DNA from: Ostreococcus lucimarinus
Taxonomy: Eukaryota
Assembly (NCBI GenBank): GCA_000092065.1
Contig: CP000599.1
Direction: 5' to 3' (one strand)
DNA: 64,000 nucleotides
Both the position numbers and the translations under genes were made by a program. Position 1 is the first letter of the stretch; each line of letters begins with the position of its first letter. Positions 16,828-46,803 of this stretch are shown here, piece by piece. The notes under the pieces are model-generated. The model saw only the letters and a list, made by a program, of their open reading frames with translations, was not told where the DNA came from and did no database searches.

Positions 16828-16905
16828 GTATAGGTATTGTGTTTCATATGATAAATATAATGTATAGAACGTGATAGTAATAAAAGGTAGTCGTATATAT
16901 AGGAT
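16828..16905. promoter_or_regulatory. AT island between divergent 7TM (-) and USP (+) genes
   Basis: ggtataggtattgtgtttcatatgataaatataatgtatagaacgtgatagtaataaaaggtagtcgtatatatagg. Confidence 0.4.
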
Positions 16906-40671: not shown

Positions 40672-41739
<1,068 letters not shown>

Positions 41740-41810: not shown

Positions 41811-42743
41811 TCACGCGGAGGGCGCCAACGCGAGGACGCCGCACGCCAAGCGCTGCGCTCGCGTAAACCGAAGCGATCGATCGTCCGTCAGTCGAAAGCC
41901 GCGTGCGCGAAAAACGAAACCCTAAACGCGCGTCGAAATCGCGTCGCGTCGAGTCGCGATCGTGGAAATCGCGTCGAAATCGCGTCGTCGACGCACCGCT
42001 CCGGCGTTGCCCGTCGTCTTCGACGTCTTGCCCTGGGTGCCGATCTCAGAGCTATCGCCCTTGCCGAGATCGTCCTCGAGCTCGTGAATCACGAACGCGC
42101 GTCCGATGATCGAGTTCGCCCCGCTCAGCGGAATCTGCGAGTCCTCGATGACGAAGTCGCACCCGCCCGCGGTGGCCTCGACGTTGCCGAGGTCGCCCGC
42201 GTGTCGCGTCGCGTCCGTCGGCGCGCCGTGATCCATCTTGTTCGGGTTAAAGTGCGGTCCCGTGGACATGCACCCGTTCGTCGTATCGCCGAACTCGTGA
42301 ATGTGCAGGCCGTGCTTGCCCGGCGCGAGTCCGGTGATGGAGCCGACGACCTTCGTCGGCGCGTCGCCGCTCTGGCTCAGCTTGAGCACGCCCGACACCC
42401 CCGCGGTGCCCGTGAGCACGCACACCGCCTGCTTTTGCTCCGCCGTCACCGCGACCGCGCGAGGGCGATGCGCGGACGTCTTCGTCGACCTGCGATCGCG
42501 CGCGCCGGCGTTCGCGCGCGCGTCAGTCGTCGCGTTCGTCGCGGGTTTAGGTTCGTCGCGTCGTCGCGCGTCGTCGCGCAGCGCGTCGCTCGAGCGCACC
42601 GCGCGCACGCGCACTTGGCGCCGCAGAGGTGGGTCTTGGAGGCGAGCGTCGCCGATCGGGAGAGCGTCTGCATGGCGCGGCGTCGGGCGTCGTGTGTCGG
42701 CGATGACGTGGCGAGGGCGCGAACGCGCCCTCGTCGCCATCAT
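41811..42743 (-). CDS. CSD: Cu/Zn superoxide dismutase with long N-terminal presequence, two exons (41997..42743 and 41811..41852)
   Basis: [23 protein letters not shown]...HAGDLGNV...[16 protein letters not shown]...TTGNAGA in exon 1. Exon 2 supplies the canonical end [13 protein letters not shown]. Start MMATRA at 42743. The rest of ORF 41922..43901 is antisense to CCS. Confidence 0.9.
41853..41996 (-). other. Spliceosomal intron (144 nt) near the 3' end of Cu/Zn-SOD
   Basis: GCG|GTGCGT donor, TTCGACTGACGG branch, GAGCGCAG acceptor. The intron carries TTTAGGGTTT, whose TAG ends the unspliced frame at 41922. Confidence 0.85.
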
Positions 42744-42751
42744 TCGAGGGC

Positions 42752-42897
42752 CTTTATATACGTATATTTCGTAGAAATATACTTTATATTCGGAAACATG
42801 TCGTATGGGTATTGTGTCTGTGGTTATAATTGGTAGTATCCGAATATTCGGACACACGGCGTATGCGTATTGTGTATATACACATAATTGGTAAAAG
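42752..42897. promoter_or_regulatory. AT-rich island in the SOD/CCS divergent intergenic region (putative bidirectional core promoter)
   Basis: About 145 bp of TA/TG/CA-rich sequence in an otherwise CG-saturated context. It contains TATACGTATA (42757-42766), four CGTAT motifs and the palindrome TCCGAATATTCGGA. Confidence 0.4.
42839..42852. promoter_or_regulatory. 14-nt perfect palindrome TCCGAATATTCGGA, with an extra direct half-site ATATTCGGA at 42786-42794
   Basis: Read directly. It is self-complementary across all 14 positions, and the half-site recurs 50 nt away. Confidence 0.35.
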
Positions 42898-43070
42898 TCC
42901 GAGCGCGCCGACCGTCGGCCGCGCGCCGCACGTCGCGACGCGCGATCGCGCGACGCCCGATCGCGTCCCGCGCGACGCCCGCGGACCTTCTCGACGCCTC
43001 GACCCGATCTTAACCGCCCGCGACCCGCGCGCGCGACACCCGAGGCGTCACGTCGACGACGACGCGCGTC

Positions 43071-44033
43071 ATGATTCCGTCGACGCCGCGCCTTCGCGCC
43101 GCCGCGCCGCGTCGCGTCGTCGACCGCGCGTCGCGATCGCGAACGCGGTCGCGATGCCGACGCGCGCTCGAACGCGCCGACGCGCGGACGAAAGACCTCG
43201 AGCGGGCGTTGGAATTCATGGTGGAGATGCGGTGCGGAGGGTGCGCGGCTAAGGTGACGACGGCGTGCGAGGCGCTCGCGGGCACGACGCGCGTCGACGC
43301 GTCGCTCGGGACGAACACGGTGACGGTGATCACGCGCGATGCGGAGCGAACGGTCAGGGAGGCGATCGAGAGCGCCGGGTATAAGGCGCGATTGATCGGG
43401 CAGGGGCGCGCGGAGCGAAGCGCCGAAGACGACGACGATTTCGGCGAGGCGCTGGCGGAGGCGCTGGGCACGGACGTGCGGACGCTGCGACAGAGCCTGG
43501 CGGCGGTGGCGGAGTTTAAGGGGAAGGCGTACGGGCACGGTGAGGCGCGAGGGACGGTGCGGCTGGTGCAGGTGAGCGAGGAGACGATATTGGCGGAGGC
43601 GGCGCTGGACGGGTTGAGTCCGGGGGCGCACGCGATTCGCGTGCACGAATACGGGGATTTGACGCGCGGGATGGATTCGATCGGGGACGTGTACGGGGGG
43701 GAGGGAGGGGCGGGGATGATCGGGATCGTCGTCGCGGACGAGAATGGGTCGGCGACGATGCCGTCGACGATGTTGAGCTCGGAGCTCAAGGCGTGGGACG
43801 TCATCGGTCGAAGCGTCGCCGTGTACGCCGCCGCGGACGGCGATACGACCGGCGCGGTGTGCGCCGTGCTCGCTCGAAGCGCGGGCGTGGGGGCGAATCA
43901 TAAAAAGTTGTGCCAGTGCGATGGGACGATCATCTGGGAGGCGGGCGAAGATTTCTTGCCCCGCGCGGTGGACGAATGCGACGCCGCGAGACCGCTGCTC
44001 GGCAAAGGAATCACCACCGCTCGGCGCGGGTGA
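43071..44033 (+). CDS. CCS: Copper chaperone for superoxide dismutase (CCS)
   Basis: HMA domain with MRCGGC metal site ([21 protein letters not shown]), a central SOD-like domain (GTVRLVQV...[12 protein letters not shown]...IGRSVAVY), and a C-terminal CxC motif ([12 protein letters not shown]). Confidence 0.88.
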
Positions 44034-44121: not shown

Positions 44122-46803
44122 TCACTTGATCTTGATGAGCGAAGGGAGCTTGACGCCGTCGATGGCGCGTTTCGCCTCGGCCCACGTCTTCGTCGTTCGC
44201 GGCGGCGGAGTCGGCGGCGGCGGCGGCGCGAAAGGTCTCGGCCGCGGTATCACCATCGTCGACTTCTTCGGCGGCGCCGCGGGCACGCTGGACGATGGCT
44301 GGTTTTCTTCGTGCGTCTTGCTCGACGGCGGCGCCGCGAGCGCCGGCGAATCGTTCGTCTTCAACGCCGGGAATTCCTTCAATCGCGACTCTCGATCGAC
44401 GGCGCTTTCGGCGTCGCTCGAGGGGGTCGCGGACTCGGACGTCGATTGCGATGCGACTTTCGGCTTGGGTGGAAAATCCGGTAGCGCGGACAGCCCCGTC
44501 GGCGGCGGAGGCGGAGGCGGAGGCGGAGGCGGCGCGGCGGCGGCGACGGCGGTCGATCTCGGCGCCGGGATGCGCGCCGGCGGCTTTCCACTCGGCAACG
44601 GCGGCGGATTCGGTGGCAGCGGCGGTGGATTCGGCATCGTCGCGACGGTTGGTCTTCGAGGCGCATCCATTTCCTTCGCGAACGTCGGTCGCGGCGGCGT
44701 GTTGGGCTTCCTTCGCGATCGCGCCGCCGTCCACTCGCCGCCCGAATCCGAATTCGCCGCGTCTTCGAGCGTCGGTTCGGGGGTCTTCGATCGCGGCGTC
44801 GTCGGCGCTTCGGGTTCGTCCTCGGCGTCGTCAGCGACGGTGATTTCATCGCGCTCGACGTCGCGCGCGACTTTCGTCAGCGCTCGCTTCGCCTTGGACG
44901 ACGAAGATTTCCGTTTCTTCTTCGAAGACGCGCCGCCGGCGGATCTCTTAGAGTTGGCGTCGCCGCCGCGGAGAACATCGTCGTCATCTTCGAACGCCTT
45001 GAGCGCAGCTTCCAAACGCGCGTCGTCCAGTGCTTTAACGTGCTCTTTGACCGCACCGCTCACGACTTTCACGAACGTCGCGCACTTTGCGAGTTCGATG
45101 CCGTACGCCAAGTGCGCGCCCTCAAGATTGAGCGCTCGAACGACGCGGTCGACGACGCCGTCGAGGGCGGTGGATTTGTACCTGTCCATCACGGGTTGGA
45201 TTCTTCGATGCAAACCTTCGACATCGTAATTTGTCGACGTCGCGCCGGCGTTCGTGGAGGAAGCGCCGCCGCTCGCGGCGGAAGTGATGGCTCGAAACGA
45301 GCGCTTTAAATCCCGCATGACGTCTCGCAGGATGACTTTGACGTCGAGCGCACGATCGGCGTACGCCTTGTCGACAACGCGCGACGAATCACCGTCACAC
45401 GAGTTCAACGCTCGCGTCGCCAGCACGCATTCTTTGGCGTGGCGCTCGATCTCTTTCGCGCTCGGTGCCGCGACGGCGAAAGAATTCCTCGCGTGATCCA
45501 AATGCTTATTCAGCACGATTTCCAGCGCCTTGGAATCCCCGGGCGGCGTCACGTGCTTGTAACACATTTCGTTCTCGCGAAGATAAAACCGCGTGCGCTT
45601 CTCGGCCAGACGGAATTCTTCCACACCCAGCTCGAGCGCCGCGGTGACGTCGCGAAATTCGCACCAGGCGCCGAGCGCGCGCGTCAAGAGCTCACGTCGC
45701 TGAATCGCGAGCAAATCCGCGTTGTCGTCGCGCACGAGCTCGGCTAGCTCAAGCATCGCTCGTTCGGCGTCGCGCTGCTCGGCGAGCCAAGACTTGACGA
45801 GGTTATGAACGCTTTCAGAAGTTTCGTCGTCCATGCGCCTGACGACGTCGAGATCGTGCGCTTGTTTAGCTTCATCCAATCCGCCCGAGGCGTCGACGAG
45901 CGGCGGCGCGGGCGCGTCGACGCTCGTGTCGAACTCGCGATCACCGAGCGTCGCCCGCGAATCGCGACGTTTGCTTCGAATCGTCGCGAATCGATGTAAA
46001 CACTCGAATCCTCGGCGCACCCAACGCTCGACGTCGACGTCGTCGCGTAAACCGATGGAATCCTCGCCGCGACGCGCGTAATCGCGCGCGTCTTCGTCTT
46101 TGACCAAATCCTCGTTCGCGCGACGCGGACGTCGCGCGTCGTCGTCGTCGTCGTCGCCACCGCCGACCGCGTCGACGACCGCACCGCCGCTTTCATCGAC
46201 CGCGAGCGCGCGCAACGTCTCCATCGCCGCCGCGAGCGCGTCCGAAGCGTCCGTCCCGCGTCGCCCCGTCGCCGTCGTCTGCGCGCCTCGACGCCCCCCC
46301 GACCCCGACCCCGACCGTCCCATCGTCCCCATCGACGCCTCCGCGCCCACCGCGCGTTCGATCGCGCGTTCGATCGCGCGCACCGACGCCGCCGCGCGTC
46401 TCCCGCGCGCGCCCACCCGTCTCGCCACCGCGCGCGCGTCCTCCTCCGCGTCTCCCTCCCCGTCCACCAGCATCGCCGCGAACGCCCCCCGCGCCGCGTC
46501 ATCGTCCCGCAGCATCGCTCGCAGCGTTCGATCGAGCGCGCGTCGCGCCCTCGATCGCGCGTCGTCGTCGTCGCGCGCCGTCGCGCGCGCCATCGCGGAA
46601 GACGAACCGTCCCTTCGATCGCCGTCCCTTCGCGCGCGTTCGTTCGACGCGCGTCGTCCGTCCTCGCGCGGTCGACGCGCGCCGCGCGCGCGTCCGTCGT
46701 CGTCGTCGCGCGCCGCGTCCGTCGCGCGCCCTCGATCGCGCGTCGCGCGTCGCGATGTCGCGCGTCGTCGTCGCGCGTTGACCCGCGCGTTGACCGTCGC
46801 CAT
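44122..46803 (-). CDS. Large hypothetical protein with Pro-rich C-terminal region
   Basis: 893-aa ORF with ATG at 46803. The N-terminus is Arg/Asp-rich, the middle is a structured helical region, and the C-terminus has [10 protein letters not shown] tracts. No family recognised. Confidence 0.6.

Follow-up and report, generated by a model that had tools for sequence, protein, structure and literature searches.

We analyzed a 64,000-nucleotide stretch of the Ostreococcus lucimarinus genome (assembly GCA_000092065.1, contig CP000599.1; hereafter "the window"), in which a gene for Cu/Zn superoxide dismutase (Cu/Zn-SOD, or SOD), on the minus strand, and a gene for a three-domain copper chaperone for SOD (CCS), on the plus strand, are immediate head-to-head neighbors. 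This adjacency is no mere consequence of gene density but an old, maintained pairing, because the same pair occurs in every informative related lineage and in the streptophyte alga Klebsormidium nitens. We consider it probable that what has been maintained is a divergent pair of a plastid-type Cu/Zn-SOD and its copper/disulfide chaperone, with a shared short spacer and the same transcriptional input. The head-to-head arrangement had been proposed in a preliminary description of this DNA, and it was borne out: both identities are supported by Pfam domains, and the two genes lie on opposite strands.

Conservation of the divergent pair

Because exact database look-ups returned no record for either the 320-aa CCS of the window or the partial model P0003 (a named CCS model on record for O. 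lucimarinus CCE9901), genomic context was taken from CCS homologs. Loci were gathered by context look-ups for these homologs and by a metagenome scan with a CCS alignment, which together yielded 92 loci with a Mamiellales-type CCS; for P0171, P0174, and P0184 there are transcripts only, which give no genomic context. A true Cu/Zn-SOD, 52-93% identical to that of the window, lies immediately upstream of CCS on the opposite strand in 66 of the 92 loci. In the other 26, at most 872 bp of sequence are available upstream of CCS, and no SOD was detected; these loci are uninformative because so short a stretch does not reach the SOD domain. The divergent pair is therefore present in all 66 informative loci, in all 14 informative clusters at 90% CCS identity, and in three genera. 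The view taken in the preliminary description was to be given up in favor of chance adjacency if the arrangement were absent from all related genomes. The comparison gave the reverse of such an absence, and the synteny check it had called for found the pair in the named references Micromonas commoda RCC299 and O. tauri (chromosome 20, with an insertion), as well as in K. nitens.

Two kinds of evidence were used to assign unnamed contigs to genera. The contigs with 70% G+C (L005-7) were assigned to Micromonas, as they share their flanking genes (PUB, Med31 / WD40, P-II) with M. commoda RCC299, while the contigs with 43-49% G+C were taken as Bathycoccus on composition alone. One further candidate for a new lineage, P0173, was rejected, being a frameshifted long-read contig of the Bathycoccus type. 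When the Micromonas loci were compared with the window by tblastx, SOD and CCS were the only collinear genes. The flanks differ between genera; for instance, the Med31 neighbor of the Micromonas pair is found 13 kb off in the window.

Since the metagenome scan had yielded Mamiellales-like loci only, wider reach was obtained by a search of 1.84 billion representative proteins, followed by a homolog search from a distant match. In K. nitens, a Cu/Zn-SOD gene lies directly upstream of CCS on the opposite strand. Its 211-aa product carries a typical transit peptide, and the annotated coding starts of the two genes are 806 bp apart, or 578 bp if an upstream ATG in the same frame is taken as the CCS start. 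The other neighbors of the Klebsormidium pair are unrelated to those in the Mamiellales. Common ancestry is the simplest reading of a pair found both in a chlorophyte order and in a streptophyte alga, judging from these gene orders; with one streptophyte sampled, the Klebsormidium pair may also have arisen by convergence.

Gene models of SOD and CCS

Ostreococcus has been reported to use Ni-, Cu/Zn-, and Mn-SOD where Fe-SOD would otherwise serve (PMC3296057, citing Palenik et al. 2007). The coordinates of the features described here are collected in Table 1. Against the Pfam Sod_Cu profile (PF00080; cut-off 28.9 bits), the unspliced SOD protein of the window scored 138.5 bits (E 2.3e-40) and the spliced protein 155.4 bits (E 1.4e-45), the latter matching 132 of the 133 profile positions. 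The SOD translation contains all four copper-ligand His residues, three His and one Asp as zinc ligands, both disulfide cysteines, and the arginine of the active site. Over exon 2, identity reaches 92% with O. tauri, 82% with M. commoda, and 77-80% with the Bathycoccus-like contigs.

Table 1. Positions of the SOD-CCS pair, its spacer elements, and the adjoining complex I gene in the window
Feature	Position	Strand	Description
SOD terminal exon	41811..41852	minus	In-frame join after GNAGA gives canonical SOD C-terminus and stop
SOD intron 2	41853..41996	minus	144 nt, GTGCGT...CGCAG
SOD exon 2 (end of transit region and catalytic domain)	41997..42489	minus	Pfam Sod_Cu; all Cu/Zn ligands, Cys pair, Arg
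Proposed SOD intron 1	42490..42599	minus	110 nt, GTGCGC...CGCAG; in-frame join to SOD domain
Proposed SOD exon 1	42600..42673	minus	Peptide and donor position kept across Mamiellales
Shared divergent spacer, ATG to ATG	42674..43070		397 bp; earlier version 42744..43070
TGACGTGG, ACGT-core element, C-box/G-box hybrid type	42704..42711		31 bp upstream of proposed SOD ATG
AT-rich core with two ~50-nt direct repeats	42786..42893	plus	Copies at 42786-42835 and 42844-42893, 80% identical, 58-bp spacing
Perfect 14-bp palindrome TCCGAATATTCGGA	42839..42852		Found in the window's clade only
CCS (copper chaperone for SOD)	43071..44033	plus	320 aa, single exon/ORF; Pfam HMA and Sod_Cu
MxCxxC copper-binding motif MRCGGC, CCS domain I	43227..43244	plus	Read from sequence
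CxC motif CQC, CCS domain III	43911..43919	plus	Read from sequence
Complex I 24-kDa-type (NDUFV2-like) subunit gene	40672-41592	minus	Pfam 2Fe-2S_thioredx, E 2.7e-48; directly downstream of SOD

After GNAGA, the SOD reading frame departs from the SOD consensus, and the C-terminus is mended by removal of a GT..AG intron (GT at 41996, AG ending at 41853). As this restores a canonical C-terminus with its stop codon at 41811, the left end of the gene had been placed correctly in the preliminary description: it coincides with the stop codon that closes the short terminal exon. The intron itself contains an 11-nt tandem repeat, CGCGTCGAAAT, in ~5.6 copies (41929-41987).

The start of SOD had been placed at ATG 42743, giving a spacer of 327 bp. 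That ATG exists and is in frame; however, comparative evidence favors ATG 42673, and the true start is likely to be this codon, followed by a short exon 1 and a 110-nt intron. In all other lineages, the SOD gene opens with a short exon (22-33 codons) and an intron after it, and the exon-1 peptide is found again, along with its donor position, in other lineages of Ostreococcus as well as in Micromonas and the Bathycoccus-like contigs. The window peptide closely resembles exon 1 of lineage L016, MSALARTSTATLASKKHFCGAACACKR, in which the donor falls at the same codon position, and of all the DNA upstream of the SOD domain, exon 1 alone still aligns with the 64%-identity lineage L016-22 (85% over 48 nt). 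Among the GT..AG combinations tried for intron 1, three join in frame without stops, and all of them share the acceptor at 42490; the donor at 42599 was chosen because L016 has its donor at the same position. The two SOD introns of the window have the ends GTGCG...CGCAG in common, and splicing yields a product of 202 aa, where the annotated protein of M. commoda has 201 aa. Although the frame beginning at 42743 is open, the same holds for many frames in DNA of 64% G+C: a stop-free ORF of 659 aa (41922-43901, minus) that runs through SOD, the spacer, and CCS antisense was rejected as a spurious product of high G+C, and cautions against letting ORF length alone decide the start codon. With SOD starting at 42673, the distance from ATG to ATG becomes 397 bp.

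The resulting protein has an N-terminal extension of ~45 aa. Together, the N-terminal extensions predicted for SOD and CCS suggest plastid targeting. Exon 1 of SOD encodes a conserved Cys-rich motif, K-x-H-x-C-x3-C-x-C, which is odd for a transit peptide and was seen in Ostreococcus, Micromonas, and Bathycoccus-like lineages (the window, at 42600-42673, as well as L016, L024, L079, L063, L047, L008, and L090). In L014, a 95%-identity relative, all of the exon-1 cysteines are replaced by arginine (HLRGAERARAR), with frame and length kept.

The CCS of the window has the complete three-domain architecture. Domain I matches Pfam HMA (43.7 bits, E 3.7e-11, cut-off 24.8), domain II is Sod_Cu-like (46.2 bits, E 7.8e-12), and the C-terminal domain III contains KKLCQCDG. 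Residues M53, C55, and C58 of domain I, and C281, Q282, and C283 of domain III, are invariant in our alignment (A1), and MRCGGC is invariant in 12 homologs. The closest solved structure is human CCS (E 1.5e-24), with SOD1 among the other matches, and public gene calls that are 99% identical to the window protein bear the name "copper chaperone for superoxide dismutase". From the biochemistry of CCS it would follow that this protein delivers copper to, and oxidizes the disulfide of, the neighboring SOD. Relative to human CCS, the window CCS has a deletion of ~11 residues in the segment of domain II that aligns to the zinc-loop region (43680-43720, residues ~205-215).

A second in-frame CCS ATG is found at 43218, just before the HMA domain, and public gene calls use either start (271 or 320 aa). 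On the basis of the reading frame, the two starts could give rise to plastid and cytosolic forms. Two in-frame CCS starts are also present in Klebsormidium (L093 9773 and 10001). For annotation, the SOD gene model is thus likely to be corrected by the short first exon and intron described above, and public CCS models in these algae often begin at the second ATG.

The shared spacer and its elements

Spacers were taken from ATG to ATG for 13 lineage representatives, including the window. They range from 84 to 530 bp (about 85-270 bp in most other Mamiellales) and do not align between genera, but they have specific short elements in common. TGACGT, on either strand, is the only hexamer found in all 13. 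In 1000 dinucleotide-preserving shuffles, TGACGT occurred in a mean of 1.9 spacers and in at most 7, and no hexamer reached more than 11 of the 13; the 13 spacers are phylogenetically related, so that these statistics overstate independence, a point that counts against the reading we prefer. The element, TGACGT(G/C), lies 31-106 bp from the SOD ATG across the 13 spacers. Four Ostreococcus lineages have it as a full palindrome, TGACGTCA; the window and all but one of the five Micromonas lineages have TGACGTG(G/T). We rejected the possibility that TGACGT is a general promoter word: it occurs in 4 of 37 spacers of the window and in 1 of 10 divergent ones, that of SOD-CCS alone. A wider test over the region between the SOD and CCS domains found TGACGT in 65 of 66 loci and in 45% of control regions; this test is weaker than the ATG-to-ATG one because the regions compared are 0.6-1 kb long.

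A second element accompanies the first. TTATCC/GGATAA lies within 25 bp of TGACGT in 7 of the 13 spacers (all five Micromonas, one Bathycoccus-like, and one Ostreococcus), compared with a shuffle mean of 0.025. Plant bZIP factors bind to sites with an ACGT core, GGATAA/TATCC forms the core of I-boxes and of MYB-related sites, and the G-box and I-box together form light-responsive units of plant photosynthesis genes.

We propose that the spacer (~400 bp in the window) would act as a bidirectional promoter for SOD and CCS. A bZIP-type factor would bind the ACGT-core element, which in combination with TTATCC resembles the plant G-box and I-box light-responsive units; both genes would then be placed under the same transcriptional input, and chaperone and client would be made together for the chloroplast. 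By its core, the element probably points more to light or redox inputs than to copper. Co-regulation of the two genes is what we infer from the arrangement and its motifs, the conserved TGACGT and TTATCC being candidates for shared elements that would drive correlated expression. Bidirectional pairs are recognized by head-to-head orientation with 5' ends less than ~1 kb apart, and by conservation beyond that of neighboring genes. On the first count, the ATG-to-ATG distances are 397 bp in the window, 84-530 bp across the 13 lineages, and 578 bp in Klebsormidium; on the second, the pair persists in all 66 informative loci, is collinear in Micromonas among otherwise different genes, and recurs in Klebsormidium.

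The remaining spacer features are more restricted. Each copy of the direct repeat in the AT-rich core holds GTATG(G/C)GTATTGT, and this 13-mer is kept in the spacers of the window's clade and of L016-22. The AT-rich core itself was dropped as a special feature, given that AT-rich troughs occur at all intergenic spacers of the window. ATATTCGGA occurs three times in the spacer, compared with 0.55 expected. The palindrome TCCGAATATTCGGA resembles a heat-shock-element dimer (GAAnnTTC) and was set aside, being confined to one clade. A one-mismatch copy of the 13-mer, GTATAGGTATTGT, lies at 16828-16840 within a long ORF, where ~0.08 would be expected by chance in the window. In L014, an unrelated insert of ~130 bp (L014 5633-5753) separates the two repeat copies, both of which are intact, in a spacer of 530 bp.

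Explanations, related systems, and flanking genes

O. tauri provides the sole spacing exception among the Mamiellales. There, a stretch of ~3 kb lies between SOD and CCS on chromosome 20 (L004 2990-5940), containing a 20-N assembly gap, an ORF of PPSPP (proline-rich) repeats with a hydrophobic tail, a RING-H2 gene, and a fragment of MoaE. The fragment corresponds to the first 50 MoaE positions and overlaps the RING-H2 gene on the opposite strand. No counterpart of the content of this insertion was found in the 64-kb window.

Besides the relatedness of the spacers noted above, several observations weigh against a shared control region. Since the pair is split in O. tauri, the shared spacer, and with it the close linkage, is dispensable. 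In that species TGACGTCA stays 15 bp from the SOD start, and there is no copy upstream of CCS, 3 kb away; in the window's own clade, the element lies 367-500 bp from the CCS ATG. The TGACGT element may serve SOD only. Further, the Klebsormidium spacer contains no TGACGT, and in Marchantia polymorpha no SOD was found within 10 kb on either side of CCS.

Such points enter into the main rival explanation, passive retention, according to which an ancestral pair was kept since its tiny spacer leaves little room for a breakpoint, with the motif serving SOD alone and no selection for co-regulation. Consistent with this explanation, most lineages have spacers that are tiny, O. tauri tolerates its insertion with the motif left on the SOD side, linkage was lost in Marchantia, and head-to-head pairs abound in these genomes (2,288 were counted in O. 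tauri; PMC4035068). We nonetheless consider it rather unlikely. Other short-spacer neighbors have been lost, and all of the genes flanking the Micromonas pair differ while SOD-CCS persists. In Selaginella, Brachypodium, and maize, none of the 2,288 O. tauri pairs was reported as kept at a distance of up to 5 kb (PMC4035068), yet SOD-CCS is found in Klebsormidium. The identity of the two partners as chaperone and client is also hard to ascribe to chance survival.

The preliminary description had suggested co-regulation of the pair, with copper or oxidative stress as examples. In its specific form, a copper-responsive shared promoter would have a CRR1/SPL7-type SBP sensor switch both genes through GTAC cores, to which SBP-domain copper regulators bind. 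In plants, CSD and CCS do respond to copper through SPL7 and miR398, and GTAC is present in some spacers (L014, L016, L089, and L090). These are, however, only 4 of the 13; its position in them is not conserved, the spacer of the window has no GTAC, and the core of the conserved motif is ACGT. The suggestion of copper control thus found no support among the motifs, and we regard this explanation as improbable.

A further explanation is a relic of the origin of CCS: domain II of CCS would derive from a SOD copy, and the divergent layout would have been left by the inverted duplication that created CCS. That domain II is homologous to SOD is clear from its Sod_Cu match and from the SOD1 structures among its matches, and the pair is old, being common to chlorophytes and a streptophyte. 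Local identity between SOD and CCS is ~30-35%, however, which excludes a recent duplication; CCS is also present in animals and fungi, so the duplication would long predate green plants, while the pair is known here from the green lineage only. Inertia over such a time is implausible without selection, and we judge this explanation very improbable.

Chance adjacency is effectively refuted: the window is dense (~38 genes in 64 kb, or ~one per 1.7 kb on a rough ORF-based gene map), and about a quarter of its junctions are divergent, with gaps of 62-612 bp, so that a head-to-head spacer of 60-600 bp, taken alone, is typical of this genome, but the same pair recurs in the same orientation in all 66 informative loci of three genera and in Klebsormidium, and by our own estimate the odds of a given gene lying divergently next to, and upstream of, another given gene are of the order of 1 in 10,000 per ~8,000-gene genome.

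Land plants co-regulate their CSD and CCS genes in trans through miR398, together with SPL7, and Arabidopsis CCS and its three CSD genes are presumably unlinked, to go by their locus identifiers. As a tentative possibility, the pair would go back to the ancestor shared by all green plants and would have been kept for about a billion years by selection for cis-coupled expression, and land plants would have released the linkage as coordination moved in trans (miR398, SPL7). In an extreme version of this idea, the layout would be a trace of the inverted duplication of SOD from which CCS arose.

The preliminary description had called functional pairing of this kind unusual in eukaryotes. This must be qualified, since head-to-head pairs are the rule in these genomes, and pairs of an enzyme with its maturation factor are known; what is unusual is the depth of conservation. 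The nearest likeness is DUOX and DUOXA (DuoxMF), a reactive-oxygen enzyme and its maturation factor that also lie head to head, an arrangement described in PMC11721785 as conserved in non-metazoan opisthokonts and from sponges to mammals. That work examined Sod and CCS across 85 metazoans; the passages in which it mentions "head-to-head" concern Duox/DuoxMF only. The two cases differ in proteins, compartment, and kingdom, and the bidirectional promoter of DUOX/DUOXA has been studied experimentally, whereas SOD-CCS is known from sequence alone. The CSD1/CSD2/CCS regulon of land plants joins the same client and chaperone in coordinate expression, and land-plant CCS resembles the algal protein in its plastid-type N-terminal extension and its two in-frame start codons; those genes, however, are unlinked and are coordinated in trans and post-transcriptionally, whereas the coupling in algae would be in cis. 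Bacterial operons, such as sodN-sodX for Ni-SOD and urease with ureEFG, likewise link a metalloenzyme to a metal-insertion or maturation factor, but they are co-directional and polycistronic, whereas SOD and CCS form a eukaryotic divergent pair with two separate mRNAs. Finally, the sMYB-PRR pairs of the clock and of light signaling provide a case of functionally related, though different, genes reported to be genetically linked across green-lineage genomes, including Ostreococcus (PMC9516744).

A search of the literature for SOD-CCS adjacency, or for a head-to-head or bidirectional arrangement of the two, found nothing on the pair; its coverage was incomplete, and the result is absence of evidence only. 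Papers on giant viruses that mention SOD and copper chaperones were set aside as irrelevant to the linkage. SOD and CCS genes are already annotated in public genomes. What is new here is the deep conservation of the pair and the conserved element in its spacer, neither of which overturns earlier work. Very few eukaryotic adjacencies survive the chlorophyte-streptophyte divide, and a metalloenzyme with its dedicated metallochaperone is a clean natural case, which allows one to ask whether selection for cis-coupled expression holds two genes together. Transformable O. tauri, in which the pair is split, offers a ready comparison with close relatives in which it is intact, and the conserved spacer element is short and can be mutated.

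Around the pair, the complex I 24-kDa-type gene is also found near SOD-CCS in Bathycoccus-like loci, where it is accompanied by a Gly_transporter gene; the latter is a neighbor of SOD in O. tauri. The 218-bp gap between the start of the NDUFV2-like gene (41592, minus) and the SOD stop (41811) contains a perfect (CGAAGC)x7 microsatellite at 41653-41694. On the other side, an 893-aa ORF with no Pfam match (44122-46803, minus) converges on CCS, with 88 bp between the two stop codons. In O. tauri (796 aa) and the Bathycoccus-like loci (1314-1326 aa), but not in Micromonas, this place is likewise taken by a long gene without recognizable domains.

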